Shown: positions 1,346-21,147 of the stretch, piece after piece
Numbering within the stretch: position 1 is the first letter of the stretch
Layout of the letters: each line of letters starts with the position of its first letter
Assembly (NCBI GenBank): GCA_037481775.1
Contig: JBBFKZ010000013.1
Span: 12,205 to 36,753 of the forward strand
Origin: Candidatus Bathyarchaeia archaeon
Lineage (GTDB): Archaea; Thermoproteota; Bathyarchaeia; Bathyarchaeales; Bathycorpusculaceae
DNA: 24,549 nucleotides
Direction: 5' to 3'
Notes under the pieces: model-generated
Databases searched by the model: none
What the model was told of the DNA's origin: nothing
What the model saw: only the letters and a program-made list of their open reading frames with translations
Made by a program: the position numbers and the translations under genes

Positions 1346-2464
1346 CTATGCCTTATGCTTGAGTGTGTCCTTTAAAGTGTTTACGAGCTTCAGGTTTTCT
1401 TCGGCTGATCTGACGGTTACTCTGAAGTAGCTGTCATCAAGGCCGACGAAGGTGCTGCAGTCCCTGATGAGTATGCCTTTCCTGGCCAGTTCTTCCTTTA
1501 ATGCAGTTGACGTTATCTTTTTACCCGTTATTTTCACGAGCAGGAAATTTGTCTCTGACGGGAACACTTGCAAGCCGCTTATTTCGCTGAGCATTTTTGC
1601 GAATTGTGCTCTTTCCTTTGCGATGGTGCGCTTGGTGTTCTCGATGAATTCAACATCCTTCAACGCCGCTAGAACGGCGTAGCTTGCTAAACTGTTAATG
1701 CTCCATGGTTGCCTAATTGCCTGCAGCGTTTCTATGAGGTCTTCGGCGGCGATGCCATAGCCGAAGCGGATTCCAGGCATGCCATAGAATTTTGTGACCG
1801 ACCTAATCACGAAGAGGTTGCTATACTGCTTAACGTAGCCCGCCATTGTGGCTTCTTGCCCTTTTTCTGCAAATTCAATATAATTTTCGTCGACGCTGAC
1901 GATAATATTTCTAGTTCGGCAGAACTCGACAAGATCCAGAATGACCTCTTTACTGTAAAGCGTGCCTGAGGGACTGTGGGGATTGCAAATGTAAATTATG
2001 CGTGTATCCGCCATAACAGCCTTTTTTACCCTTTCTACATCCAGTGCGAAATCCTCTGGCAGCTTCACGAAGACAACTTCGCCGCCTACCCGCAAAACTG
2101 CCTTCTCATATTCAGTAAACGACGGCACAGGAATAACTGCTTTGAATCCGCTTGGTAAAGCGTCCGTGATCATGTAGATAAGCTCGATAGAGCCGTTTCC
2201 CAAAATAATGTTTGATTCTTCAACGCCGTGTCCCACGTACTTGGCAATTTCAGTTCTTAACTCTACAGGGTTTGGGTCTGGATAAAACCTTATTAGCTTG
2301 GCGTGCTGCTGTATGGCTTCCACCGCCTTTGGGGAAGGCCCGAGGAAATTGATGGGTCCACTGAATTCAAGCACCTTTTCGAGTGGAATGTTATATTTTC
2401 TGGCGAAGCCCCAGACGTCGCCGCCGTGGCTTACAAACCGCTTCTGTTTACACGGGTTTTTCAG
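1346..2464 (-). CDS. cobD: threonine-phosphate decarboxylase CobD / HisC-like PLP-dependent enzyme
   Basis: N-terminal HGGDVW..LEFSGPINFLG, YPDP, GNGSIELI, CNPHSPSG, VDENY and the PLP-lysine motif RSVTKFYGMPGIRFGY. The frame extends 30 codons upstream of the tracked GTG (2374) to CTG at 2464, which follows GGAGGA. Confidence 0.8.
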   Translation of the reverse strand: MKNPCKQKRFVSHGGDVWGFARKYNIPLEKVLEFSGPINFLGPSPKAVEAIQQHAKLIRFYPDPNPVELRTEIAKYVGHGVEESNIILGNGSIELIYMITDALPSGFKAVIPVPSFTEYEKAVLRVGGEVVFVKLPEDFALDVERVKKAVMADTRIIYICNPHSPSGTLYSKEVILDLVEFCRTRNIIVSVDENYIEFAEKGQEATMAGYVKQYSNLFVIRSVTKFYGMPGIRFGYGIAAEDLIETLQAIRQPWSINSLASYAVLAALKDVEFIENTKRTIAKERAQFAKMLSEISGLQVFPSETNFLLVKITGKKITSTALKEELARKGILIRDCSTFVGLDDSYFRVTVRSAEENLKLVNTLKDTLKHKA

Positions 2465-2466
2465 CG

Positions 2467-3009
2467 CTATTCCTCCATTCGTCTAATTATTTCCTTCTCC
2501 AACTCCCTGTGCGCTTTGAAATGTGCGTTGTACATGTTCACTATTTTGTATAGCCAGTACACTATTCCAAAGCCTAAAGTAATTATGGTTATCAAAGCAT
2601 ATTTTTTTATTGGTACACTCTGCGGCATAAACATTCTCTCTGGGAAAGCGCTTGCAAGAAACGCGTCTTGCCGCGTTTCATGCTTCACCAAATCTTTGGA
2701 AAGCAAGTAAACTAACACGAATACGGGGATCACCAGGACAATCGAGGCTGCCCATGCTTTTGCATTCATTTCGCGTATGCTTTCAGTAGGCGTCTGGATT
2801 TCTTTTCCCTTTTTTCTTAGGAACTCTGCGATTTGCTTTTCCAGCTCGTGTTCTCGGCGGAAATGCCTGTTCCTGCTTTCAATGATGCGATGGAACATGG
2901 GGAAAAAAGCTAATCCGAAGCTTGCTACCGATGCCAAAAACCACATGGAAAACCAGATTCTTCTATCTTTTTCCAGTATCGCCTGCATAGCCCTTTCCAT
3001 TCTGCACAA
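2467..3009 (-). CDS. small membrane protein with repeated TM-plus-His units (DUF4234-like)
   Basis: Three hydrophobic segments, each followed by a His-containing amphipathic helix. ITIITLGFGIVYWLYK resembles DUF4234. The start may be ATG at 3000. Confidence 0.75.
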   Translation of the reverse strand: MCRMERAMQAILEKDRRIWFSMWFLASVASFGLAFFPMFHRIIESRNRHFRREHELEKQIAEFLRKKGKEIQTPTESIREMNAKAWAASIVLVIPVFVLVYLLSKDLVKHETRQDAFLASAFPERMFMPQSVPIKKYALITIITLGFGIVYWLYKIVNMYNAHFKAHRELEKEIIRRMEE

Positions 3010-3035
3010 TAATTTCGCGTTTGATAGTGTTCACA

Positions 3036-3057
3036 GCCAAAGTTTATAAATTCTTTT
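3036..3057. promoter_or_regulatory. bidirectional archaeal promoter (palindromic TATA box)
   Basis: TTTATAAA at 3043-3050 with purine-rich BRE-like flanks on both strands, inside a 67-bp divergent gap. It lies 26 nt upstream of ATG 3077. Confidence 0.6.
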
Positions 3058-3076
3058 ATTCAGCATCTTTAGTCAA

Positions 3077-3784
3077 ATGGATAATGTTGATGTGCTAGTT
3101 TCCGTGGTTATTCCCGTATTTAACGAGGCGCTGACAGTAGGCAATATAATCGAGCGGTTAAACGTTGTTATGCAAAAATCAGGTTTCACATACGAACTAA
3201 TTGTTGTAGACGATTGCTCAACAGACAGCTCACTGGAAATTTCTAAAAAGCTCTACGCAAATGTTCTATCGCTGAAAACGCACATGGGCAAGGGCTGCGC
3301 CCTCAGAGCTGGCTTCGCAAAGGCACGGGGTAGCGTAATCGCAACAATTGATTCTGACGGTTCACATCGCCCAGAGGAGCTACCGCGCTTGTTGGCGCCT
3401 GTACTACGGAATGAGGCGGATCTTGTTATTGGCTCCAGATATTTAAGCCGAAATTTTTCTGTTGAGCGAAAATTTAATGTTGCTGGCGTTCGCCTATTCA
3501 ATTTTTTAATTAAACTTTTAATTGGAACAACTGTTTCTGATTCTCAATCAGGTTACCGCGTGATGAAATCCGAGGTTCTGAGGGGTATCTGTTTAAAGTC
3601 AAGGGAGTATGAGATAGAATCGGAGATGCTTGTGAAAATCGCCAAGCGCGGCTTCCGAATCATGGAGGTGCCGATAAGTTTTGATCAGCGTACCTACGGC
3701 ACATCAAATTTGGATCCCATAGTTGATGGACTTAAGATTCTTTTGTCAATTGTGTCTTCATTCATGAAGGATGGCCGGGAATAG
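3077..3784 (+). CDS. glycosyltransferase family 2 (polyprenol-phosphate glycosyltransferase, DPM1-like)
   Basis: SVVIPVFNE, VVDDCSTD, GKGCAL..GF, DSDGSH, IGSRY, DSQSGYR. Confidence 0.93.
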   Translation: MDNVDVLVSVVIPVFNEALTVGNIIERLNVVMQKSGFTYELIVVDDCSTDSSLEISKKLYANVLSLKTHMGKGCALRAGFAKARGSVIATIDSDGSHRPEELPRLLAPVLRNEADLVIGSRYLSRNFSVERKFNVAGVRLFNFLIKLLIGTTVSDSQSGYRVMKSEVLRGICLKSREYEIESEMLVKIAKRGFRIMEVPISFDQRTYGTSNLDPIVDGLKILLSIVSSFMKDGRE

Positions 3785-4773
3785 TGGATTCTACGTATTT
3801 GCCGAAGATTTCGATAATTGTGGCAACTTTCAATAATGAACAGACTATCGGTGAATGCTTAAAGGCCCTTTTCGAACTGAATTATCCACGGGATCTCCTT
3901 GAAGTAATTGTCGTTGACGGTTGCTCTACAGACGCGACTTTGCAGATTACACAGGGGTATCCAGTTAAGCTGGTTTCAGCGCCGCTCAATGCGCCAGCAG
4001 CCTATAACTATGCGCTCAAAACAGTCCGAAGTGATGTTGTCGCCTTCATCGATTCAGACGCGAAAGTTGAAAGCGAATGGCTGAACAAGCTTGTGGCTTA
4101 TTTGCGTGATCCGCAAGTGGCTGGGGTAAGCGGAGGCATAGAAACGTGGAATACGGAAAACGTTTGGGCACGGAGCATTGGTTATGACCTTAAAAGCAGA
4201 TATGCCCGCCTAAAGAGAAGTGTCAAGCGTGTTGCAACCATGAATCTTTTAATGAAGAAGCATGTTATTGAGGAAGTTGGCGGTTTCGACGAGAACTTGC
4301 CTTCACAGTATGACACTGACTTGGGTTTCAGGATAACAAGCCGGGGCTACAAGATACTTTTCGATCCAAACGCTAAATGTTACCACTTCAATAGGCCAAC
4401 TTTGGGAAGTTATTTTCGCCAGCAGCTACAGTATGGCAAGAACACTGCTAAGCTCTATCTTAAGCACGCCCACCTGGCTAGGGGCGACGAAATTACTGAT
4501 TTCGGCATGAACATCCAGCCTCTCTTGCTGCTTGCTGCCGCCGCCTTTATCCTTTTGGGCATAATCGACCTGCTGAGGCCGTTATGGTTTGCTTCAGCTG
4601 CTCTTTTCGTGCTTATGCTAATTTACTACATTATCTCTGCAGTTACGCTTTCCATCAGGTTCAAAGACGCGGCTGCCATGCTATTGGTTGTGCTGTATTT
4701 TGTGCGTGCGTTTGCCTGGTTTTCCGGCGCCGTAGTCACCACGCTTGGTTTTCTATGGGAGCGAATAAGGTGA
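3784..4773 (+). CDS. glycosyltransferase family 2 with C-terminal transmembrane helices
   Basis: SIIVATFN, VVDGCSTD, FIDSD, VGGFDE, YDTDL and RQQLQYG (QxxRW-like), followed by about three TM helices. The GTG start overlaps the upstream TAG. Confidence 0.92.
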   Translation: MDSTYLPKISIIVATFNNEQTIGECLKALFELNYPRDLLEVIVVDGCSTDATLQITQGYPVKLVSAPLNAPAAYNYALKTVRSDVVAFIDSDAKVESEWLNKLVAYLRDPQVAGVSGGIETWNTENVWARSIGYDLKSRYARLKRSVKRVATMNLLMKKHVIEEVGGFDENLPSQYDTDLGFRITSRGYKILFDPNAKCYHFNRPTLGSYFRQQLQYGKNTAKLYLKHAHLARGDEITDFGMNIQPLLLLAAAAFILLGIIDLLRPLWFASAALFVLMLIYYIISAVTLSIRFKDAAAMLLVVLYFVRAFAWFSGAVVTTLGFLWERIR

Positions 4774-4778
4774 GCTGA

Positions 4779-5972
4779 ATGGTTAGAGTATGCTTTATCT
4801 CGCCGGAGTATCTGCCTCTTTCAGGCGGCACGGGCTCTTACGTGTACTACCTTTCTAATGAGCTTATGAAACGCGGCAACTCCGCTTACATTGTTACCGG
4901 CTATGACGAAAGCGGCGACATCAAAGTCAACGAGCAGCACCGCATCTTTTTCCTCAAAACGCTCAAGATGCCCATTGTAAAATCATTTCAGTTCGCCGCC
5001 TCTGCCTCAAGGAAATTAAACAAGATGCGAGATCGGTTGCCAGTCGATATCACGCATGTTAATCTTCCGCTTGTGCCGAGCTTTGCTGTGCCAGCCGGTT
5101 TCGGAAAAGCATTAGTCACTACGGTTCATTCAACATGGAAGGGCGAGGCTGAAGCCATTAAGGGTGAGCCGTATAGCCGGCTTAACGCGAATGAGAAGTT
5201 TATGGTGAGCTTCAACTGGTTTCTAAGGCTTTTTGAGGAAAGAATGCTGGAGCGTTCAAACAAAATAATCGCGGTAAGCGACTTCACAAGACGCGAGCTT
5301 CTTCAATACTACCCGGTAAAGGCGGATAAGATTCGTGTAATCCATAATGGCGTAGACACAGACAAATTCAAGCCTGCATCTGACAAGCGCAAGGCAAAAG
5401 CAGAGCTGGGCTTAAGCACGGCGGACAAGGCGGTTCTTTCGGTGGGTCGCCTATACGCTCGGAAAGGCTTGTTTACCCTCATCGAAAGCGCAGCGCTTGT
5501 TGCCAGGAAATTTGGGAATGTCAAGTTTATAATCGCTGGGAAAGGCTTAAGCAACGAAATGGCGAAGCTAGTGAACTACGCTACGAAGCTTGGAGTTAAA
5601 GAGAACCTTGTTTTCACTGGATATTTCCCAGACAAGAAGCTTCCTCGGCTTTATCAGGCCGCAGACATTTTTGCTTTCTCGACGTTCTACGAGAATCTTC
5701 CTTTCGCGGTTTTGGAGGCTTTGTCTACAGGTTTGCCTGTTGTGACAACGCGGGTCGGCGGCATCCCGGAGATGATTGAAAGCGGCCGAAACGGCTTTCT
5801 GGTTGAGCCCTTTAACTCGTGTGAGTTGGCGGAGAAAATTTTGTTCTATCTGGAGCATCCAGCGGAGGCTGCTGAAATGGCGCTTTCCGCTCGGCGAACC
5901 ATAGAAGAAAAATTTGATTGGCGTTTAATAGTCAAAAAGGTGCTTGACGTCTACGCTGAGGCGCTAAGTTAA
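4779..5972 (+). CDS. glycosyltransferase family 4 (GT-B)
   Basis: YLPLSGG, VIHNGVD, VGRLYARKG and ENLPFAVLEALSTGLPVV (E-x7-E). Confidence 0.95.
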   Translation: MVRVCFISPEYLPLSGGTGSYVYYLSNELMKRGNSAYIVTGYDESGDIKVNEQHRIFFLKTLKMPIVKSFQFAASASRKLNKMRDRLPVDITHVNLPLVPSFAVPAGFGKALVTTVHSTWKGEAEAIKGEPYSRLNANEKFMVSFNWFLRLFEERMLERSNKIIAVSDFTRRELLQYYPVKADKIRVIHNGVDTDKFKPASDKRKAKAELGLSTADKAVLSVGRLYARKGLFTLIESAALVARKFGNVKFIIAGKGLSNEMAKLVNYATKLGVKENLVFTGYFPDKKLPRLYQAADIFAFSTFYENLPFAVLEALSTGLPVVTTRVGGIPEMIESGRNGFLVEPFNSCELAEKILFYLEHPAEAAEMALSARRTIEEKFDWRLIVKKVLDVYAEALS

Positions 5973-6931
5973 TCTGCGCTTGCGGTTTTGCCTCTATACG
6001 CGGTGGTTGCTTTTTGCAGGAGCTTGACAAAGCCTAATGAGCAAAAGAAGACTTTAGTTAGAAGCTCGTGTTTATATATCATCGCTTGCGCTTTGACGGG
6101 CAAATCTATTTTTGGCCGCTTAAACCTTCGCGCTGCCTCTGCTATTTGTAGACCCTGCACGTTTATGGCTTCAGCTTGCAGGTTTTCTTTTTCGGCTATG
6201 TAATTTAGGTACTCCACTTCTTCCAGGTTTAGGCCCATGATTTTTGAGGCGACAAGGTCGATGGCTAATGCGCAGTTGCTGGTCAACATCAAGTTCATTT
6301 TGACTGGTGTGCCCTTTGTCGGGCCGTTTCCTTCTATGGCTACCCTCGCATCCATTACTGTAAGCTTTGGCCTGAGAATTCTGTAAAGTTGGTAGAAAAC
6401 TTCGTTTATGTAGGGGTGCAGGTAAATGCGTTTGTTGCTTGGTATGCAGCCGAACAGGTTTTTTATGGCGCCGCTGTACATTGCCCACTCGTGGGTTTTC
6501 ATAAGCGCCAAGTCCACTACAGCATCTGCGTCGAGCACAGTTTTCGGAAGAAAAAGCTCTTTCAAGTGTCCGCCATCGGTTTGAAGCTTAACTTTGACTA
6601 TTTTGTCTTCTGAAAGGTTGATTATGGCGCCGCCTGCCTTTTTCACGGCTGCTTCCATGCCTGTTTTTTTGAATGCTACGCGGCAGGGGTAGTTGAATCC
6701 GTCAGATTCGCCTACTATTACTTCTGCAGCGTTGTCGCGGAGTAAACCTACAAGTTCATAAGCTAATGTGGGGCTGGTCACGACGCCTGGCACATATTCT
6801 GGGTGGCTTAGGTTGGGTTTTACGAAAATCCGCTTTTTTCCATGTAGCTGCGCCTCTTTCACCGCTTGCCTTAGAATGTCGCTTATGTCATCGTAGGTTT
6901 TGAAGATTTTGACGGTTTTCTGCTTTGTCAT
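5969..6931 (-). CDS. DUF362 domain-containing protein
   Basis: IFVKPNL, VIVGESDG, MKTH, GAIKNLFG, EGNGP.KG and AIDLVASKIMG. ATG 6931 overlaps the radical SAM stop as ATGA, so the track's longer N-terminus is overlap. Confidence 0.88.
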   Translation of the reverse strand: MTKQKTVKIFKTYDDISDILRQAVKEAQLHGKKRIFVKPNLSHPEYVPGVVTSPTLAYELVGLLRDNAAEVIVGESDGFNYPCRVAFKKTGMEAAVKKAGGAIINLSEDKIVKVKLQTDGGHLKELFLPKTVLDADAVVDLALMKTHEWAMYSGAIKNLFGCIPSNKRIYLHPYINEVFYQLYRILRPKLTVMDARVAIEGNGPTKGTPVKMNLMLTSNCALAIDLVASKIMGLNLEEVEYLNYIAEKENLQAEAINVQGLQIAEAARRFKRPKIDLPVKAQAMIYKHELLTKVFFCSLGFVKLLQKATTAYRGKTASAD

Positions 6932-8361
6932 GGGCTTTCCGCTTCCTTTGACAGTATGCATCCTGGGTCTGCGGCTAAGAAGTCGCCGTTGTGGTATGCG
7001 TTTGCTCTTGCTCTGCAGCCACCGCAAATGTACTTGTATCTGCATTTGCTGCATGCGCCTTTTAGGTTGGTTCTTTCTCGCAGTGCGTTGAAGAGTTTAG
7101 AGTTTAGCCATACATCGCTGAAGTTTTCTTTTTTCAAGTTTCCAACGTGTATGGGTAGGAAGACGCATGGGTGCACATCTCCTTGCGGCGATATTGAGCA
7201 GTAGAGTCTTCCTGCGCCGCATCCGCCTATGAAATCCGCGAGTGGCACAGCTTTTTTGCTGACTTTCACGGTTTGCATGTGCGCCATGGACATGGCTAGT
7301 TCCTTGCCGTTGCCTTGGCATTGGAGCGCTACGCGTGCCAGCTGCGGAGCAGTGGTGAGTATGGTGACTTTGAAGCCTTTTGACATTTTATCCAGCAGGT
7401 AGAGCATGAGTTTTTCTCTTTCTTCCGGAGCCAAATCTTCGTTGTAGTGCTTTTTTCCGCGCCCTGTGGGGATGAAGTTGAAGTAGGTGAATCGCGCTAC
7501 GCCGATTTTCTCCGCCAAATCAAGGATCGCCGGCATTTCTGCTATGTTGCTTTTGGTTGCGGTGGTGGCGATGCATGCGCATAAGCCTGCTTCCACGCAG
7601 TTCTTTAAGCCCTCTATCGCCCTGCTGAATGCGCCTGGGGCTCCTCTGAATGAGTCATGGGTTTCTGCTGTGGCGCCGTCGATGCTGACTTCCACGTAGT
7701 TGATTTTCGCCTGCTTAAGCTTCTCCACATTTTCTTTGGTTAGCATGGTGCCGTTGGTGGCTACAGAAACATAAAGCCCGCGTTTGGCGGCGTAGCTTGC
7801 TACTTCGAAGAAGTCTTTTCTGCTGAGTGGTTCTCCTCCTGAAAAGGCAAGCGCGGTTACGCCGGCATCCGCAAGCTGATCCACTATGACGAGGGCTTCT
7901 TGGGTGGTGAGCTCAGGCTGGGCTGCTGCGCCCGAGTTCGAGTAGCAGTGTTTGCAGTTCAAGTTGCATTTGTGCGTGAAGTCCCATACGACTAGGAATG
8001 GTGCGTAAATGCTGAGCGGTTTACGTATTCCATAATGTGTGAATGATTTTACAAGGGTGATTATGGCTCTTCTCGCATACGGATCCGCAAGCAGCTTTTC
8101 CACTTTCTCCCGTTTTATGTTGAGGCTTCGTCTGAGAAATTCGATCCAGAACCGTATTATGCGCGAGTATAAACCGTTGCACTTGCATTTTGCCGCTTTT
8201 TTGCCCACGTAATCATCCAACGCGGCTTCAAGAATCGTCCGGTTACAGGCGCCGCATTTCCTCAGCGACAACTGTAGCATTTTCTTTGTGGTGGGCAAGC
8301 TGATTATGGCATTCCAGAAACTGTCGTGACTCAGCAAACTCATTGCTTTCCCTTTTTTCAA
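6928..8361 (-). CDS. radical SAM protein with SPASM domain and Cys-containing N-terminal extension
   Basis: CNLNCKHC (CxxxCxxC), FSGGEPL, VSIDG and SPASM CGAG..GDVHPC..CSKCRYKYICGGCRARA..DPGC. The start is TTG 8361 or ATG 8343. Confidence 0.95.
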   Translation of the reverse strand: MKKGKAMSLLSHDSFWNAIISLPTTKKMLQLSLRKCGACNRTILEAALDDYVGKKAAKCKCNGLYSRIIRFWIEFLRRSLNIKREKVEKLLADPYARRAIITLVKSFTHYGIRKPLSIYAPFLVVWDFTHKCNLNCKHCYSNSGAAAQPELTTQEALVIVDQLADAGVTALAFSGGEPLSRKDFFEVASYAAKRGLYVSVATNGTMLTKENVEKLKQAKINYVEVSIDGATAETHDSFRGAPGAFSRAIEGLKNCVEAGLCACIATTATKSNIAEMPAILDLAEKIGVARFTYFNFIPTGRGKKHYNEDLAPEEREKLMLYLLDKMSKGFKVTILTTAPQLARVALQCQGNGKELAMSMAHMQTVKVSKKAVPLADFIGGCGAGRLYCSISPQGDVHPCVFLPIHVGNLKKENFSDVWLNSKLFNALRERTNLKGACSKCRYKYICGGCRARANAYHNGDFLAADPGCILSKEAESP

Positions 8362-9585: not shown

Positions 9586-9793
9586 CCCTCTAATAAGCGC
9601 CTTCCATGAATGGTCGAGCCGCTGCTAAAGCTCATCTTTTTTCGCATAGTGACTTTTTAAAAGCAGACGCGGCAACACTAATAATTCGTGATGCTGCTTG
9701 CTTCGTGAGTTTATCCTTTTTTCGCGTCAGGGCAGAACCGATCCAGGCCTTGATGGACTATGGACTGGAAAAATGGCGCGTAGGAGAAAGATT

Positions 9794-9815
9794 AAATGTT
9801 ACTTTAGTATCATTT
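9794..9815. promoter_or_regulatory. putative autoregulatory operator of the toxin-antitoxin operon
   Basis: Imperfect palindrome AAATGTTACT-TT-AGTATCATTT (9/10 pairs) overlapping BRE/TATA-like GAAAGATTAAAT. GGTGA SD at 9827-9831. Confidence 0.55.
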
Positions 9816-9837
9816 TATATAACAGTGGTGATATTAA

Positions 9838-10032
9838 ATGAGCGTGGTCAAAACAAGAAAAGTCGGCGGCTCCTTAGTAATAACCCTGCCCAAAAAACTT
9901 GTGGAAAGCAAAAAAATCAAAGAAGGAGAAATCCTCGAAATAACCATAAAAAAAGTCAGAAAAGACGGCTTCGGAATCTTCCGAGGAATGAAACCCTTCA
10001 CAGCAGCGGACGAGCTGACCACACATGACTGA
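9838..10032 (+). CDS. vapB: AbrB/MazE/SpoVT-family antitoxin
   Basis: KTRKVGGSLVITLPK..IKEGEILEI swapped-hairpin signature. It overlaps the downstream PIN gene by 8 nt. Confidence 0.9.
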   Translation: MSVVKTRKVGGSLVITLPKKLVESKKIKEGEILEITIKKVRKDGFGIFRGMKPFTAADELTTHD

Positions 10033-10414
10033 AAAATACATCATAGACGCCTACGCATGGATAGAATACTTGATAGGAAGCGAAGCAGGCACCAAAGTCA
10101 AACATATCATAGAAGAAGAGAATAACGAAATCTACACCTCTGCAGTCACGCTCGCAGAAGTCATAAGCAAAACCGCAAGACAGAAACGAAACGTCGAAGT
10201 AGCCTACGACATCCTAATAAGTAACTCAACCGTAATTGACATAAATGAGCAACTCTCAAAAGAAACAGGAATACTCCACGCAAAAATGCGAAAAACCAAA
10301 AAAGATTTTGGGCTAGCAGACGCCTACGTGCTTGCTACTGCAATTAAAACTAACGCTAAAATAATAACAGGCGATCCACATTTCAAGGGCATAAAAGAAG
10401 CAATCATCATATAG
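10025..10414 (+). CDS. vapC: PIN-domain VapC toxin (ribonuclease)
   Basis: IIDAYAW, TLAEV, LADAYVLATA and ITGDPHF carry the conserved acidic PIN residues. Confidence 0.93.
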   Translation: MTEKYIIDAYAWIEYLIGSEAGTKVKHIIEEENNEIYTSAVTLAEVISKTARQKRNVEVAYDILISNSTVIDINEQLSKETGILHAKMRKTKKDFGLADAYVLATAIKTNAKIITGDPHFKGIKEAIII

Positions 10415-12201: not shown

Positions 12202-12275
12202 GCCTCGGTAGCTCAGCCCGGTAGAGCGGCTGCCTCGTAAGCAGCAGGCCGCGGGATCAAAGCCCGCCCGAGGCT
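12202..12275 (+). tRNA. tRNA-Thr(CGT), intronless, CCA not encoded
   Basis: Acceptor GCCTCGG/CCGAGGC, D arm GCTC/GAGC, anticodon arm GCTGC-CT-CGT-AA-GCAGC, T arm GCGGG-ATCAAAG-CCCGC, discriminator T. TATA-like ATTTAAAA at about 12159. Confidence 0.95.
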
Positions 12276-14622: not shown

Positions 14623-14967
14623 ATGTCAGACAAACTAGCTGAGTACCTTACAAACTATATCCGAGAAAGAATTGGCGTATACAAAAAATATATTATAGCT
14701 GCCTTCAACAGCAAAGATCACTGCATCTGGTACCTTGAAAGCAGCGCAGGCATGCCCGTGCCCTCATCCGACCTGAAAAACTGCGAGCTCCTGCGAGACG
14801 CCAAAATCTTCACGGAGGACACACGCATATCACGAAACGGCCGCAACATCTACAAAGTTTTCTGCTTAACAGACTTCGGCAAACAACTCGCCAAAGCAAT
14901 GCTGAAAGAAAACCAGATCACGCCCGAAGCTGAGGAACCCGCCCTCGACGAAGCAGACAAAAAGTAG
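14623..14967 (+). CDS. hypothetical protein, probable winged-helix fold
   Basis: Wing-like RNIYKVFCLTDFGKQLA and an acidic tail. ATG 14623 lies about 25 nt after TATA-like TTTAAG, consistent with a leaderless transcript. Confidence 0.75.
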   Translation: MSDKLAEYLTNYIRERIGVYKKYIIAAFNSKDHCIWYLESSAGMPVPSSDLKNCELLRDAKIFTEDTRISRNGRNIYKVFCLTDFGKQLAKAMLKENQITPEAEEPALDEADKK

Positions 14968-15222: not shown

Positions 15223-18200
15223 ATGGCTAGTGTACTTTCACCTTTGGAGTACGGTGCATTATATGCAGTTGTAGGCATCGCAATAATAGCCCTCGTCTAT
15301 GCTTTCTTCCTTCGAAAGCGAATTCTTAAGGAGCCAACAGCGGCTGGGCGTGTAAAGGAAGTTTGGGAAGGCATTCGCGCTGGAGCAAACGCCTATCTTC
15401 ATGTCCAATTCAAATCCATGCTGTTGCTCATTGGCTTCTTAGCAATTTTCCTCTACTTTTCCGCTTCGCTTGATAATAGCCCGCTTTTCGTGGCGATCGG
15501 CCGCGTCGGCGCCTTCCTTATGGGCACATTCTTCTCTGCCATGGTAGGCTACATCGGCATGAACATGGCTGTCCAAGGCAGCATACGCGTGGCTGAAGCA
15601 TCAAAGAAGGGATTTCGCGAAGCACTGCGTATTGCATACCGCACTGGCACAATCACGGGCATGCTTACAGACGGTTTAGGTCTGCTCGGCGGCGTCGCCA
15701 TCTTTCTCATATACGTTGACCACTCGCCCGATGTGCTGTTAGGCTTCGGTTTCGGAGGCACATTGCTGGCGCTTTTCATGCGAGTCGGCGGCGGCATCTA
15801 CACAAAAGCCGCTGACGTAGGCGCTGATCTCGTAGGCAAAGTTGAACGCGGCATCCCAGAAGACGACCCAAGGAATGCCGCGGTAGTCGCTGACCTTGTA
15901 GGCGATAACGTGGGCGACTGCGCAGGCATGGCTGCAGACATCTTTGAGTCTTACGAAGTGACAATGGTTTCAGCGCTAATACTTGGATTAGCCATCGCCA
16001 CGCAAGGCCCCATATTCGAGGCGAAATGGATTGTTTTCCCCATCCTAGTACGCGGCATCGGCGTCATCAGCACGCTCATCGGCACTTACATGGTAGCCAA
16101 GTGGCCTGACAAACTAACAAAAGGCGACGCCTTCAAAGCCATGGACTTATCATACGATCTTTCAAGCGTCATTTCCGCTGCATGTTTCCTTGTGCTATCC
16201 ATAGTGTACGTGAATGATATACGCGTGTTCCTTGCAACCACCGTAGGCATAATTCTTGCAATAAGCTTCAACAAACTCGCAGACTACTTCACCAACCCAA
16301 GCAGAAACCCTGTTGACGGCGTAGCAAAATCCAGCAAAACCGGTCCTGCAACTGTAATTTTGCAGGGTCTTGCACTTGGCTTCGAAAGCACCGTTTGGAC
16401 CATCTTCCTCATAGCTTTGACCATAGTCGTTTCCATGCTGATATGGACTGGTGCAGGCTTCTTATTCGCTTCCTATGGCATAGCGCTGGCAGGCATAGGC
16501 ATGTTGACGCAGACTGGAAACAACGTTGCCATGGACACCTTCGGTCCAATAGTTGACAACGCAAATGGCATAGGCGAAATGGCCGGGTTGCAGGGTCACT
16601 CAAGAAAGATCCTTGCAGACTTGGACGCATCAGGAAACACAACCAAGTCGGTGACGAAAGCCATAGCTATTGCCTCAGCAGTAGTAGCCGCCATCTCACT
16701 GTTCTCATCCTTCACAGAAACGGTGCATGTAAACCTCGACATAGCAACGGATCCGCTGGTCTTTGTAGGCCTACTAATAGGCGGTGCATTGCCCTTCCTG
16801 TTTAGCTTCATATCCATAAGAGCTGTGGGCAGAGCAGCAGGCAAGATCATCGAAGAAGTCAGAAAGCAATTCCGCATTCCAGGCGTAATTGAAGGCACCA
16901 AGCTGCCTGACTACGCCAAAGTCGTAGGCATCTGTACATCCGCGGCACAAAGAGAACTTGCAACCATAGCCATCATCGCTATCCTAACACCTCTAGCCGT
17001 GGGCTTAACCCTCAGCCCCTCAGCATGGGGCGGCTTCCTTGCAGGAGTAATCTTGACAGGACAACTTCTCGCTGTTTTCATGGCAAATTCTGGAGGCGCA
17101 TGGGATAACGCCAAGAAAAAGATTGAAGACGGATGCTACGGCGGCAAGGGCTCCGAAAGCCACAAGGCTTCAGTTATAGGCGACACGGTCGGCGACCCCT
17201 TGAAAGATACAGCTGGTCCCGCGTTGAACCCCATGATAAAAGTCATAAACCTTGTATCGCTTCTCTTTGCGGGCTCGATACTGGCTTTGAAGAATAGCTT
17301 CATAATTCAAGTGCCTATCCTAAACATCGAGATCCCAATAGTTGCTGCAGCGCTTGCGATAATTCTCGTCATCATAATAGGCGTAGCCATATTCTATAGT
17401 AAACGTGAGACAAAAGAAGAAGCGCAAATCCGCGACATAGACGCACCTATATTCGAAAACGTAATAGTCAATCCAAACCCGGTAATGGCAAATGCCCTCT
17501 TCATCGTAAATGGCGTTTTGGACGACTCAAGAACAGGAGGATCACGAATTGTTTCAGCAGAATACAGCTTTGACGGCGCCTCATGGTTCCCAATGGCTGC
17601 TGCCGATGGCAAGCTGGACACGCAGCTTGAGCAGTTAACCGCGAAAACCATGATTGAAAAACCAGGCATATATCCGCTTATAGTGCGCGGCGCAGACGAA
17701 ATGGGCAACGTAACCGCACAAGAATGCGGCACAATCATCGTTTATGATCCCGCTGCTGGCTCCGCGATCGGCGAAGGCTGGATTGAATCTCCTGAAGGCG
17801 CATACACAGAAAAGCCGCAAGCCGAAGGCAAAGCCACCTTCCAATTCACAGCTGGCTACCAGAAAGACACGGGTACACCTGTAGGTCAAGCTGAATTCGC
17901 ATTCCCCGCGGCAGAATTAACTTTCAGAAGTGAACGCCTCGATTGGCTCGTGATCACAGACAAAGCAGTGCACTTTACAGGAACAGGGCTGCTCAACGGC
18001 ACGAAAGAATGCGCCTTTGCGTTAATTGCAATGCCAGAAAATGCTGCAGAAGGCAAACCTGCAAAATTCCGGCTAACCCTCTGGGAAAAACAAACAGGTC
18101 AAGTAATCTATGACAGTGACTTAGGCAACCCTGACAGCGCCTATCCCATAACGAAAGTTGCCGGCGGCACCATAACCCTCAAGGCAAAGGCTCACAGTTC

Positions 18201-18252
18201 AGCTAAAAAGAAATCTCGTAAAGCCGATAGCACCGGCCAAAACGCAGATTAG
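15223..18252 (+). CDS. hppA: membrane-bound cation-translocating pyrophosphatase (K+-independent type) fused to C-terminal beta-sandwich domains
   Basis: GGGIYTKAADVGADLVGKVE, EDDPRN, DNVGDCAG, GNTTK, GGAWDNAKK and GDTVGDPLKDTAGP. 17 hydrophobic helices, then about 280 soluble residues. Confidence 0.97.
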   Translation: MASVLSPLEYGALYAVVGIAIIALVYAFFLRKRILKEPTAAGRVKEVWEGIRAGANAYLHVQFKSMLLLIGFLAIFLYFSASLDNSPLFVAIGRVGAFLMGTFFSAMVGYIGMNMAVQGSIRVAEASKKGFREALRIAYRTGTITGMLTDGLGLLGGVAIFLIYVDHSPDVLLGFGFGGTLLALFMRVGGGIYTKAADVGADLVGKVERGIPEDDPRNAAVVADLVGDNVGDCAGMAADIFESYEVTMVSALILGLAIATQGPIFEAKWIVFPILVRGIGVISTLIGTYMVAKWPDKLTKGDAFKAMDLSYDLSSVISAACFLVLSIVYVNDIRVFLATTVGIILAISFNKLADYFTNPSRNPVDGVAKSSKTGPATVILQGLALGFESTVWTIFLIALTIVVSMLIWTGAGFLFASYGIALAGIGMLTQTGNNVAMDTFGPIVDNANGIGEMAGLQGHSRKILADLDASGNTTKSVTKAIAIASAVVAAISLFSSFTETVHVNLDIATDPLVFVGLLIGGALPFLFSFISIRAVGRAAGKIIEEVRKQFRIPGVIEGTKLPDYAKVVGICTSAAQRELATIAIIAILTPLAVGLTLSPSAWGGFLAGVILTGQLLAVFMANSGGAWDNAKKKIEDGCYGGKGSESHKASVIGDTVGDPLKDTAGPALNPMIKVINLVSLLFAGSILALKNSFIIQVPILNIEIPIVAAALAIILVIIIGVAIFYSKRETKEEAQIRDIDAPIFENVIVNPNPVMANALFIVNGVLDDSRTGGSRIVSAEYSFDGASWFPMAAADGKLDTQLEQLTAKTMIEKPGIYPLIVRGADEMGNVTAQECGTIIVYDPAAGSAIGEGWIESPEGAYTEKPQAEGKATFQFTAGYQKDTGTPVGQAEFAFPAAELTFRSERLDWLVITDKAVHFTGTGLLNGTKECAFALIAMPENAAEGKPAKFRLTLWEKQTGQVIYDSDLGNPDSAYPITKVAGGTITLKAKAHSSAKKKSRKADSTGQNAD

Positions 18253-18428
18253 CAGCCAACGCTTAACCATCTGAAACCCATATTTTTTCTTTAATTTCAA
18301 ATAGGCAAACAAAGCTATATTTCTGCATCCGACTGAATCTTGCGCATAAAGTGCTGCGTAAAGGCTCTTTCGCTGCCGCAGATTTCATATATTGGCGAGA
18401 AAGCCCGCGTTCTTTAGACGTGGGAGTG

Positions 18429-20411
18429 TCACAAGATCAGTGCTAAAAGTCGGAAGGCAACTCCTCCCAAGAGTATCGCGAATACAATTTCGAATATTGT
18501 TATAAGAAGCGCCTTCTTCAAACTGAACTCCTTGACCAGCGCCGCTATGGTTGCTATGCATGGAATATAGAACATTGCCACCAAAGTGAAAACAACCATC
18601 TGCACTGGCGTCAGCACTTGGGCGAAGTTGGTTGTTCCCAGAAGCGTTGCCAGCATAACCAGCGAAAGCTCTTTTCTCAGCACGCCAAATATCAGCGTTA
18701 TCCCCGTGATGGCGGGCAAGCCTAGCCACGCTACGGTTATGGGGCTTAGCGCTGCGGCTACGGGCTCCAGTAATCCGGCCACTTCCGCAAGCTTCAGCGC
18801 GAGGCTTCCAGCAATTATCAGTGGAAAAGCTATTTTTATAAATTCAGCCACTCTAAACCAAGTTTGCTTCAGTATGGTTTTAACGTGCGGCCACCGGTAG
18901 TCATGCATTTCCATGATTAGCGCCGTGGGTTCGCCGGGAACGACTTTGAACGCCAATCGGCCAAGCAAGAAGATTATCAGGAAGTTGAAGAGGTAAAGTG
19001 CCAGTGCCCAGTGGATGCCTAAAAAGTTGCCTACGAGGCCGAGTATGATGACGGTGGTTGCAGCGCACGGCACAAGAGTCGTGACAAACGCGGCGAGCAA
19101 CTTTTCCCGCTGAGTTTCCATTATTCTGCATCCCAAGCAAGCGGGCACGTTGCAGCCGAAGCCGAGCATGAGTGGGATGAATGCTTTTCCATGCAGGCCC
19201 ATTTTGTGCATGATGTTGTCCATTAGGAATGCGATACGGCTTAGGTATCCCGAGTTTTCTAGGAAATAGAGTATGAGGTAAAAGGGAATTATGTAAGGCA
19301 AGACTATTGTGATTCCCGCGATGAGGCCCTGAATGACGCCGCCCCAAAGCAAATCGGCGGCGATTCCTGTTCCGAAAGCGCCTGTTACAAGCGGCTCTAA
19401 GCTGTAGAGCAGATCGCTAAGTAAGCCTGAAGTGTAATCTCCGAAAGTGAATATGCCGTAGAAAATTAGCACCAGCGAAAAAATCATTGTCACGTAGCCT
19501 GTTACTTTATGAGTTGTAAAGTTATGCAGGCGTTCTCCTAAAGTGGGCTTTATGGGCGGCACTATTGACTGCACCGATCTAGCTATACAGCCGGCTGCCT
19601 CATAGCGCTCAGAAGTTATCACAGTTGAGCATCCGTGACCATGAAGATGCTCAATTTCTGCTGCAAGCTTCCTTGCCATAGCAACTACTTGCGGTGCTAC
19701 CCGTTTAATCTCTCGTTCTATTTCCTCATCTCCTTCCAGCAGCTTGATAGCCGTGTACCGCCTTGGATAGACAAACTCAACATCCTTCATTGCATCCGCA
19801 AGTAAGCTGATTTTTTCTTCTATTTCCTCGCCATACCATATCTGAGTGGGCTTTCTCCCCGGTTTCGTTTCACCCACTTCAATGGCTTTCTCTAGGAGCT
19901 TGTCGATGCCTATGCCTTTCACAGCGATTGTTGGCACAACGGGTACTCCCAAAACTTGCTCCATCTTTCGAATGTCTACATGGATTCCCTTGCTTTTTGC
20001 GATGTCCATCTGGTTCAGCGCAATAATCATCGGCGTTTCCAGTTCCATAAGCTGTAAAGTGAAGAAGAGGTTTCGCTCAAGCACCGAGGCGTCTACAACA
20101 TTTATAACCACGTCTGGCCGCTCAACTGCTATGTATTTTCTTGAGATTACTTCCTCAAGCGAATATGTGGAAAGCGAGTATATTCCTGGCAGATCCACAA
20201 CATCTATTGTGTAACCTTTGAACTGAAGAGTTCCTTCTGCTTTTTCAACTGTTTTTCCCGGCCAGTTGCCTATGTGCTGATGTAAACCAGTTAAGTGATT
20301 AAAAATCACAGATTTGCCGACGTTAGCGTTTCCAGCTAAGGCTATCTTAAGGTGTCGGCTGCCTTTTTGGCTTATGCACTCCTTGTTTGATGGGCAAGAG
20401 TGGAATGCCAT
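18429..20411 (-). CDS. feoB: ferrous iron transporter B
   Basis: G1 GNANVGKS, G2 GNWPGKTVE, G3 DLPG, G4 NQMD, then ENSGYLSR, GFGCNVPA, FYIPCIAT and multiple TM helices. Confidence 0.97.
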   Translation of the reverse strand: MAFHSCPSNKECISQKGSRHLKIALAGNANVGKSVIFNHLTGLHQHIGNWPGKTVEKAEGTLQFKGYTIDVVDLPGIYSLSTYSLEEVISRKYIAVERPDVVINVVDASVLERNLFFTLQLMELETPMIIALNQMDIAKSKGIHVDIRKMEQVLGVPVVPTIAVKGIGIDKLLEKAIEVGETKPGRKPTQIWYGEEIEEKISLLADAMKDVEFVYPRRYTAIKLLEGDEEIEREIKRVAPQVVAMARKLAAEIEHLHGHGCSTVITSERYEAAGCIARSVQSIVPPIKPTLGERLHNFTTHKVTGYVTMIFSLVLIFYGIFTFGDYTSGLLSDLLYSLEPLVTGAFGTGIAADLLWGGVIQGLIAGITIVLPYIIPFYLILYFLENSGYLSRIAFLMDNIMHKMGLHGKAFIPLMLGFGCNVPACLGCRIMETQREKLLAAFVTTLVPCAATTVIILGLVGNFLGIHWALALYLFNFLIIFLLGRLAFKVVPGEPTALIMEMHDYRWPHVKTILKQTWFRVAEFIKIAFPLIIAGSLALKLAEVAGLLEPVAAALSPITVAWLGLPAITGITLIFGVLRKELSLVMLATLLGTTNFAQVLTPVQMVVFTLVAMFYIPCIATIAALVKEFSLKKALLITIFEIVFAILLGGVAFRLLALIL

Positions 20412-20424
20412 AAAAGTTCACCTG

Positions 20425-21147
20425 TTAGCTTGATGCGTTTTCTGGTTCCACAAAAATTTTTGAGGCCACGCCTTTCCCGATGGCAAGTTTTGAATCCCGC
20501 ACCGCCAGCTCTACGGGTCCTCCCAGCGGCGCGATTCTGACGACACATATTCTTGTACCCGGCGTAAGCCCCATGTCCAGAAGGCGCTGAACCATGTTGC
20601 GGCCGCCTCTGATGAAGACGATTTTGCCGTGCTGTCCCTCTTTTAGGCTGCTTATAGCGACTAGTCTTTGATCATGTTTTCCCGTTTCTTCTAGGCCTTT
20701 TTCATGTAGTTGTAGGCATTCGGCGCAGCTTTCTATCTGGAGATCGCATGGCGGAATCATTTTTCCATCGTCTGGGCATCGATCGGGATGCTTTAGGAAT
20801 CTGCATAGCGATTCTTCTGCTTCGTCCGAAAGTGAATGCTCCATCTCGCATGCTTGGCTGTGGACTTTTTCTTTGTCAATTTTCAAAATGTCATGTAGAA
20901 AGCGTTCTAGTAAGCGGTGTTTCCGAGCTATTTTTTCAGCGATTTGGCGGCCTTCATTTGTTAGGTTTGTTCCGTGGTATGGTGAATATGTAATGTAGCC
21001 TTTGTTGGCGAGTTTTTTTAGCATCTCAGTTACGCTGGCTGGCGCGATTCGTAGTACTTGTGAAATTTTTGTGGTGCTTACTGCTTTTCCGTTTTGGGAT
21101 AGGTCGTATATTGTTTTTAGGTAATCTTCGCTGCTTTTGTGTGGCAT
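20425..21147 (-). CDS. DtxR/IdeR/MntR-family metal-dependent repressor with C-terminal FeoA domain
   Basis: EDYLKTIY, PASVTEMLKKL, RKHRLLERFL and ACEMEH, then FeoA-like RLLDMGLTPG..APLGGPV. GGTGA SD. Confidence 0.95.
   Translation of the reverse strand: MPHKSSEDYLKTIYDLSQNGKAVSTTKISQVLRIAPASVTEMLKKLANKGYITYSPYHGTNLTNEGRQIAEKIARKHRLLERFLHDILKIDKEKVHSQACEMEHSLSDEAEESLCRFLKHPDRCPDDGKMIPPCDLQIESCAECLQLHEKGLEETGKHDQRLVAISSLKEGQHGKIVFIRGGRNMVQRLLDMGLTPGTRICVVRIAPLGGPVELAVRDSKLAIGKGVASKIFVEPENASS

Follow-up and report, generated by a model that had tools for sequence, protein, structure and literature searches.

Membrane-bound pyrophosphatases (mPPases) are described in the passages of PMC6882861 on subunit architecture as single-domain proteins of 70-81 kDa with 15-17 helices, and in the structural passages of PMC5150537 as having 16 helices, with loop 5-6 closing the cytoplasmic active site. 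The only extra mPPase domain found in print was the OmpA-like domain at the C-terminus of the enzyme of Paucibacter (810 amino acids (aa)) and of its relatives in Burkholderiales (passages of PMC11210485 on these enzymes). We analyzed a stretch of 24,549 nucleotides (the window; positions 12,205 to 36,753 of the forward strand of contig JBBFKZ010000013.1, assembly GCA_037481775.1) from a Candidatus Bathyarchaeia archaeon, in which one gene encodes a complete mPPase core, a 17th helix, a charged linker, two beta modules and a basic C-terminal end. Bathyarchaeia are an abundant, uncultured group of sediments and hot springs. In the literature searched on mPPases and Bathyarchaeia, no published description of an mPPase with helix 17 and a two-module tail was found, in agreement with the earlier note on this DNA, whose author, a model, knew of none. 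Searches for a membrane or proton-translocating pyrophosphatase of Bathyarchaeota or Bathyarchaeia found, among the papers listed and judged by title and abstract, none on the subject, and the match examined for a pyrophosphatase with 17 transmembrane segments was the general phrase '15-17 transmembrane helices' in the text of PMC6882861. The parts of the gene are as follows, in window coordinates, with the basis of each assignment in parentheses.

15223..18252, + strand: whole gene including the stop codon, mPPase fusion of 1009 aa (list of open reading frames (ORFs) and translation)
15283..17268, + strand: mPPase core, residues 21-682, with 16 helices, the catalytic motifs and the K-site GNTTKSVTKA (PF03030)
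17224..17292, + strand: helix 16, residues 668-690, predicted to end outside (hydropathy; helix parity as in PMC8657866)
17293..17331, + strand: predicted outside loop 16-17, residues 691-703 (13 aa), without K or R (loop charge count)
17332..17397, + strand: helix 17, IPIVAAALAIILVIIIGVAIFY, residues 704-725, 22 aa (hydropathy; in all 17-helix forms)
17398..17430, + strand: charged, predicted cytoplasmic linker SKRETKEEAQI, residues 726-736 (alignment)
17431..17751, + strand: module 1, predicted Ig-like/PKD-like/E-set beta-sandwich, residues 737-843 (AlphaFold2, VIA-align)
17752..18189, + strand: module 2, predicted small up-and-down beta-barrel-like domain, residues 844-989 (AlphaFold2 model of the module alone)
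18190..18249, + strand: disordered basic C-terminal end with KKKSRK, residues 990-1009 (predicted local distance difference test (pLDDT) <60; alignment)

The core matched the Pfam family H_PPase over the entire profile (PF03030; 770.2 bits against a cut-off of 29.7, E value 2.5e-231, profile positions 1-645 of 645, residues 21-682). The NCBIfam equivalog NF001952 (782 positions) aligned with residues 6-732, through helix 17, at 882.5 bits, below its cut-off of 912, and NF001960 aligned with the core only, at 737.6 bits, above its cut-off of 546. Helix 17 was the top 19-residue hydrophobic window of the protein (Kyte-Doolittle value 3.32; tail maximum 1.29), and the ORF translation contained 283 in-frame residues past SKRETKEE. 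For the tail, AlphaFold2 with a 39-sequence alignment predicted two all-beta modules and, after them, a disordered basic end (mean pLDDT 89.4, predicted TM score 0.79). The description in the earlier note of a 17th helix and about 280 in-frame residues on an mPPase was thus borne out by ORF, Pfam match, hydropathy and structure prediction. The tail has a mass of ~28 kDa and a tether to helix 17 of ~11-16 charged residues; in the window's genus the last 22 residues carry a net charge of +4 to +6, and in alignments the C-terminal end past the barrel was present in pump tails and absent from the secreted homologues considered below.

The catalytic motifs GGGIYTKAADVGADLVGKVE, PEDDPRN, VGDNVGD, DNAKK and GDTVGDPLKDTAGP aligned with those of the solved plant enzyme. 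The K+ site reads GNTTKSVTKA in the fused protein, as against GNTTAAIGKG in the K+-dependent plant enzyme, and GNTTK..TK was present in all of the 13 17-helix forms checked. Replacement of Ala by Lys at position 12.46 marks K+-independent mPPases, and K+-independent mPPases pump protons (the rule of Belogurov and Lahti, as cited in the text of PMC6882861). With Lys at the A/K 12.46 site an H+ pump is therefore expected, and the fused enzyme is by its sequence expected to be of the K+-independent type; the K+-independent class has Lys at this site, and the solved mPPases include the K+-insensitive proton pump 8b37. Names such as 'sodium-translocating' and 'K+-stimulated' in databases are generic labels. 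In a plain paralogue of the same genome (690-aa frame, locus L001, contig C10 of genome G000) the K+ site (GNTAKAITKG) likewise contains Lys, giving both pumps the K+-independent signature.

For the junction, which the earlier note had asked to see confirmed across 17330-17500, metagenome contigs holding the stretch were compared. A 243-nt contig from run X4 (contig record 10, not flagged as a possible source of the window) bridged 17228-17470 with one mismatch, and contigs from run X3 agreed, tiling 16900-18300 with zero differences; in run X1, which may be the source of the window DNA, the whole stretch lay in a single 18.5-kb contig. The runs holding the stretch were labeled as metagenomes of hot springs, sediment and groundwater. 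Nothing was found in favor of a merger of the pump gene with a neighboring secreted-protein gene by faulty assembly or gene calling; the window comes from a fragmented genome (1.82 Mb, 96.7% complete, 54 contigs). The probability of such an artefact is virtually nil, and it was taken as refuted because an independent contig crosses the junction and the identical continuous frame recurs in 14 separately assembled genomes and 66 protein clusters from several sources.

The distribution of the fusion was followed with a junction probe (residues 640-830) in a family sample of 332 genomes from 70 genera, an order sample of 401 genomes and a class sample of 401 genomes. Pumps were found in three C-terminal states: plain pumps of ~690-710 aa, which matched probe positions 1-49 only; pumps of ~740-785 aa, which matched on through helix 17 (probe positions 1 to ~93-108); and frames of 1008-1046 aa with a full probe match, present in 12/332 family genomes from 4 genera. 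All 6 genomes of the window's genus, its own included, carried the fusion, as did 4/10, 1/7 and 1/5 genomes in the three other genera. The order sample gave 13 full matches and extended the fusion to a second family by two genes, bringing the total to 14 Bathyarchaeia genomes in 5 genera and 2 families of one order; outside this order no fusion was found among the 401 genomes of the class sample, in which the short 17-helix form occurred in 5/6 genomes of a further family. The window's genome has two mPPase genes (the fusion and the plain paralogue) and a single copy of the tail unit (1 match). In a public protein collection, junction residues 660-800 matched 149 proteins at E<=1e-10; among the 120 of these that were listed, at least 66 were clusters of 989-1023 aa with a coverage of 99-100%, one was a 658-aa fragment and the rest were short forms. 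The listed matches bore only PF03030 and generic names as annotation; the fusion sequences are thus public but without annotation beyond the pump domain.

Protein P0227 (770 aa, on a 2.7-kb contig, single cluster) has the fusion-type linker SKRETKEEEKARDTEGPIASD and ends ~40 residues later, and may represent secondary tail loss or a broken gene. Proteins P0263 and P0271 (859 and 861 aa) were considered as pumps with different tails and rejected, the extra length being N-terminal: they are short-tail 17-helix pumps with ~110 additional N-terminal residues and a signal-peptide-like start, an addition that presumably lies outside. Also rejected as fusions were an 836-aa frame in genome G007 with a partial tail match, which is an ordinary PKD-repeat protein, and a 982-aa frame in genome G311, which is an upstream read-through of the short form.

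In all 17-helix forms, short or fused, YSKRE stands directly after helix 17 (mostly as SKRETKEE), and the short forms stop 13-45 residues after YSKRE. Helix 17 and SKRETKEE are, by this comparison, older than the tail fusion, because orthologues of ~740-785 aa stop just past the SKRE motif.

At E<=1e-3 an exhaustive search with the tail returned 7112 cluster representatives, of which 701 were still matched at E<=1e-30. Query positions ~10-262 were covered by most of the 150 best phmmer matches, giving full-length homology with both modules contiguous. Of the proteins retrieved, 147 matched over 200 positions or more, 5 of them pump-linked; in 143 of the 147 the unit lay within 15 residues of the C-terminus. 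Its partner domains elsewhere included PKD, Kelch, fn3, LTD, nuclease and beta-helix domains and a type IX secretion system (T9SS) sorting tail, so that the recognition of the module pair as typical of the C-termini of secreted or surface proteins held good. Among the 159 units placed in a tree, the 17 tails linked to pumps formed one clade against the 142 others with full support (100 in the Shimodaira-Hasegawa-like approximate likelihood ratio test (SH-aLRT)), and two secreted proteins were its sisters (support 87). The tree of pump cores contained two well-supported fusion clades, with their mutual sisterhood unresolved; forcing them into one clade cost 3.7 log-likelihood units and was not rejected (approximately unbiased test, p-AU 0.161). 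On the simplest reading of these trees, the tail would have been acquired a single time and then inherited vertically with losses, or else spread by transfer inside the order.

Ratios of non-synonymous to synonymous substitution (dN/dS; Nei-Gojobori, pairwise, 29 finite pairs) were 0.055-0.21 for the tail and 0-0.066 for the core, and 0.089 and 0.016, respectively, in the least saturated pair (dS ~0.2). Between the window's protein and a diverged orthologue the tails were 46% identical, as compared with 70% for the whole proteins. Pump tails retained 57 positions that are conserved family-wide in the secreted units; fusion-specific conserved positions, rare elsewhere, numbered 12, six in the linker and the others L766, K808, K813, E826, T900 and P970. 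These ratios indicate that the tail is under purifying selection. A tolerated passenger without function, retained because its loss is slow, would fit the patchiness within genera and the possible secondary loss in P0227, which has the fusion-type linker and then stops, but is very unlikely given dN/dS values of ~0.06-0.2 over synonymous distances from 0.2 to >1, intact full-length frames in the 14 genomes and 66 clusters, and a confidently predicted fold. The earlier note had expected its reading to fail if the junction lacked support or if the fusion were unique to this assembly, with a neutrally evolving extension and close orthologues ending after helix 17; what was found is a supported junction, a widespread fusion and an extension with the signature of purifying selection. 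Close orthologues ending after helix 17 do exist, as that objection had it, but seem to represent the ancestral short form.

The membrane side of the tail was considered next to the solved topology. Even-numbered mPPase helices have cytoplasmic N-termini (statement on topology in PMC8657866); helix 16 would therefore end outside, and one extra span would bring the chain back to the cytoplasm. Hydropathy gave 17 hydrophobic segments in the protein, the core accounting for 16. In the 17-helix model, K and R account for 0/50 residues of the outside loops and 43/309 of the inside loops; loop 16-17 contains none, and the first 25 residues past helix 17 contain four. Parity, hydropathy and this charge bias back the placement of the modules on the catalytic side by helix 17, as first proposed from the letters, and the tail very probably lies in the cytoplasm. 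In module 1, a Cys pair of the secreted family was intact in 109/142 non-pump units and in 0/17 pump-linked units, and the first of these positions was Cys in 0/60 parsable fused clusters; the loss of the pair would fit a reducing compartment but is not decisive.

An extracellular tail would call for helix 17 to be something other than a single crossing, for instance a segment that folds back as a re-entrant hairpin together with the hydrophobic residues before it; the tail would then act as in secreted proteins, binding envelope or substrate and tethering the pump to the cell wall, a role assumed for the OmpA-like domain of the Paucibacter mPPase. All 142 other units sampled sit in secreted-looking multidomain proteins, the residues conserved across the family are retained, and a presumably periplasmic C-terminal domain on an mPPase has a precedent (PMC11210485). 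However, helix 16 already ends outside and display there needs no added helix, and helix 17 is a single 22-residue segment (Kyte-Doolittle 3.32) with a K/R-free loop before it and SKRETKEE after it; moreover, the Cys pair is absent from all pump-linked tails, and the fused forms gain a basic C-terminal end. On this balance an extracellular tail is quite unlikely.

The predicted structures of the modules were compared with solved folds using VIA-align and Foldseek. For module 1 (model residues 9-118), many Ig-like domains were nearly tied in Z score, with 12.0 for 6fhn (a xanthanase module), 11.6 for 4pw3, 11.3-11.6 for the dimerisation domain of sulfite oxidases/dehydrogenases and 10.7 for the archaeal PKD domain 4xed (root-mean-square deviation 2.5, 97 aligned). 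For this module, called Ig-like in the earlier note, the label PKD stands at the level of the fold (4xed, Z 10.7) and not at that of a PKD sequence match, which stayed below the cut-off (PF00801, 12.5 bits against 23.5, E 0.15). Module 2 alone was modeled by AlphaFold2 with a pLDDT of 94.4 as a nine-strand up-and-down arrangement, and was thus predicted as a small beta-barrel in place of the second beta-sandwich originally proposed. Its best matches were 3rwx, a putative outer-membrane protein of Bacteroides (Z 8.2), and 7n34, the cyclic-dinucleotide receptor barrel Cap15 (Z 8.1), followed at Z 5-8 by 8-stranded outer-membrane, avidin-, YceI- and haemophore-like barrels, scores that equal the background stated for VIA-align (one chain reaches Z>=8). 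Foldseek gave zero PDB matches for module 2 at E<=1e-3, and the ESM Atlas gave no usable named match; the model describes a barrel-like domain without a clear solved relative. No curated Pfam or NCBIfam family exceeded its threshold in the tail (the OmpL47 barrel family reached E 0.012), and 9 homologues likewise gave no Pfam match to module 2. The NCBIfam model post-COAP-1 (NF041523) was sub-threshold in 4/5 secreted homologues scanned (18.6-38.9 bits, cut-off 40) and had zero matches at E<=1 on the window's tail; among the papers listed for post-COAP-1 and choice-of-anchor P, none was relevant.

The match of module 1 to an Ig-like dimerisation domain (Z 11.3-11.6) bears on a mainly structural tail, in which the two tails of the obligate dimer would associate or pack on the cytoplasmic face and stabilize the pump in hot or harsh habitats, with no sensing. 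mPPases are homodimeric (structural passages of PMC5150537), and the runs holding the stretch carry hot-spring, sediment and groundwater labels. However, the match to the E-set fold is a generic one, with many unrelated Ig-like domains within 1-2 Z units, and the short form suffices for relatives within the family; this explanation is unlikely. A two-copy complex prediction for tail residues 9-266 gave a score of 0.00 and a mark of 0.42, was made without controls and speaks neither for nor against binding.

The account toward which we lean is that of a conserved fusion in which helix 17 preceded the tail and in which the tail is a cytoplasmic accessory module on an H+-type pump. An mPPase with the K+-independent signature would first have gained a 17th transmembrane helix and SKRETKEE, returning the chain to the cytoplasm. 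Later, one event would have joined the two-module unit, an Ig-like sandwich with a small beta-barrel, after the motif, the donor being a unit with which secreted or surface proteins otherwise end. A short charged tether would then hold this ~28-kDa tail on the cytoplasmic side near the catalytic funnel, where the tail would take no part in catalysis and would bind a ligand or a partner protein, tuning or localizing the pump. What the data show is the architecture, its spread, one origin of the tail and its purifying selection; the cytoplasmic location is strongly inferred, whereas the regulatory or docking role is only inferred, and the roles proposed in the earlier note (ligand sensor, scaffold or oligomerisation unit) are hypothetical. 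An accessory role is favored because the unit is widely reused, probably for binding, with its conserved residues retained, and because the tail is under selection and would be located where motions of loop 5-6 control catalysis. As a more specific and doubtful possibility, the tail may be a built-in cytoplasmic sensor, with the barrel binding a metabolite or partner and gating hydrolysis of pyrophosphate and proton pumping via the tether next to loop 5-6. If so, this would be the first mPPase with an allosteric regulatory domain, formed from an extracellular binding unit relocated by one helix.

Several points weigh against the account of a cytoplasmic accessory module. The topology is a prediction based on helix parity, hydropathy and charge bias. 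The Cys argument is statistically weak, the fusions representing one or two events, and both Cys are also absent in 28/142 secreted units and in one of the two nearest secreted sisters (P0024). As the tail has kept nearly every residue conserved in the extracellular family and has few fusion-specific conserved positions, it may still do what the unit does outside cells. The fusion is patchy within genera (4/10, 1/7 and 1/5), and many relatives have the short form only, so that the tail would be dispensable in the lineage. None of the runs holding the stretch is on record as RNA, and these runs are silent on expression.

The neighborhood of the pump gene was compared among fusion loci. In 8/8 fusion loci examined a small gene (~105-114 aa) lies directly upstream on the same strand, and the remaining neighborhood differs. 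In the order sample this gene was present in 65/401 genomes, limited to 7 genera; it adjoined the fused pump in 11/11 fusion genomes where it was found, and in the other two the pump gene was cut by a contig end. In 8 short-form genomes (those present in both search listings) it lay on another contig or at a distance. In four other genomes examined, from related genera, it stood tail-to-tail with a third type of mPPase (719-728 aa, 16 helices, GNTTKALTKG, ~40% identical to each of the two pumps in the window's genome); the flanks of this third type hold the small gene, an eRF1-like gene and an amino-acid-kinase/PUA gene. Family hints for the small gene were all sub-threshold (E values: PadR, 0.057; a winged helix-turn-helix model, 0.14; DUF2513, 0.017), and its neighbors in the ESM Atlas carried MarR- or ArnR-type winged helices, with low scores. 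Directly downstream of the pump, 5 loci of the second fusion clade have a gene for a soluble family I pyrophosphatase (PF00719, E 2.3e-49); no such gene stood beside the fused pump in the window's genus or in genome G434. The features concerned are the following.

14623..14967, + strand (window): small conserved upstream gene, ~114 aa, possibly winged-helix (adjacency in fusion loci)
1884-4040, + strand, locus L038: third-type mPPase
1702-3885, + strand, locus L039: third-type mPPase
4371-6527, - strand, locus L037: third-type mPPase
1845-4013, + strand, locus L040: third-type mPPase
1719-2252, - strand, locus L030: soluble family I pyrophosphatase, with homologues in L031-L034 (PF00719)

The small gene was rejected as a tail-specific partner, being found also beside a tail-less type of pump, and the neighborhood was rejected as a clue to a tail partner, the small gene alone being common to all fusion loci and not tail-specific. 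The gene seems to represent a family of small mPPase-associated proteins; it goes with mPPase genes in this lineage and may not belong to the pump itself. If the tail were a sensor, the small, possibly winged-helix protein could belong to the same circuit of pyrophosphate homeostasis.

A scan for promoters and terminators gave counts at the level of shuffled sequence; the consensus patterns used are bacterial and the host is archaeal. Elsewhere in the window, at 9606-10414 (+ strand), a PIN-domain gene (10025-10414) overlaps by 4 bases the end of a 140-aa ORF without annotation (9606-10028), a layout that resembles a VapBC-type toxin-antitoxin pair. At 18429-21147 (- strand), FeoB (660 aa) is preceded by a 240-aa protein in which a DtxR-type iron-dependent repressor (N- and C-terminal domains) is fused with a FeoA domain. 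At 5969-8361 (- strand), the gene for a 477-aa radical SAM/SPASM protein runs into the start of that for a DUF362 protein (361 aa), and three glycosyltransferase genes (3077-5972) adjoin this pair.

Reviews present mPPases as primary pumps of a single domain, lacking a dedicated regulatory one. A conserved natural mPPase variant with a folded appendage offers a handle on whether and how such pumps are regulated or positioned. The fusion would be a case of topological repurposing, in which a unit of extracellular proteins is moved to the cytoplasm by a single added helix. The family that includes module 2 is very large (7112 representatives at E<=1e-3), lacking both a Pfam model and a clear solved structure, and its characterization would annotate thousands of proteins. 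The fusion and its neighbors (the small gene and, in one clade, the soluble pyrophosphatase) hint at a pyrophosphate energetics of Bathyarchaeia that is still unexplored.

Compared with known systems, the 16-helix core is homologous to that of the solved mPPases (Vigna radiata 4a01, Thermotoga maritima 4av3, and 8b37; E values 2e-126 to 7e-111), but for 11/11 solved mPPase sequences the alignment ends at query residue 682-687, and these proteins are without helix 17 or an extra folded domain. CBS domains occur on family II soluble pyrophosphatases, and an Ig-like cytoplasmic domain occurs on Kir/KirBac channels. These offer a possible analogy only, that of a folded, ligand-binding cytoplasmic modulator, with no homology and with binding by the tail hypothetical. 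The secreted C-terminal unit of Ig-like domain and barrel is 36-45% identical to the tail over both modules and has the same VYDP junction, and its second module shows a weak likeness to post-COAP-1. Proteins with the secreted unit carry an N-terminal hydrophobic stretch in 88/142 cases, whereas the unit in the pump fusion follows a transmembrane helix; the fused tail also differs in the missing Cys pair, the extra basic end and the lack of a secreted context. The short 17-helix Bathyarchaeia mPPases (~740-785 aa; nearest model NF001952) share helix 17, SKRE(T)KEE and GNTTK..TK with the fused enzyme, but end 13-45 residues past helix 17 without a folded tail. The Paucibacter mPPase likewise has an extra folded C-terminal domain of unassigned role, but is bacterial, with an OmpA-like domain of ~110 residues, and the passages of PMC11210485 on it mention no extra helix, so that the domain would lie outside; in the Bathyarchaeia fusion, two beta modules make up the added unit, and the extra helix would lead the chain back into the cytoplasm.

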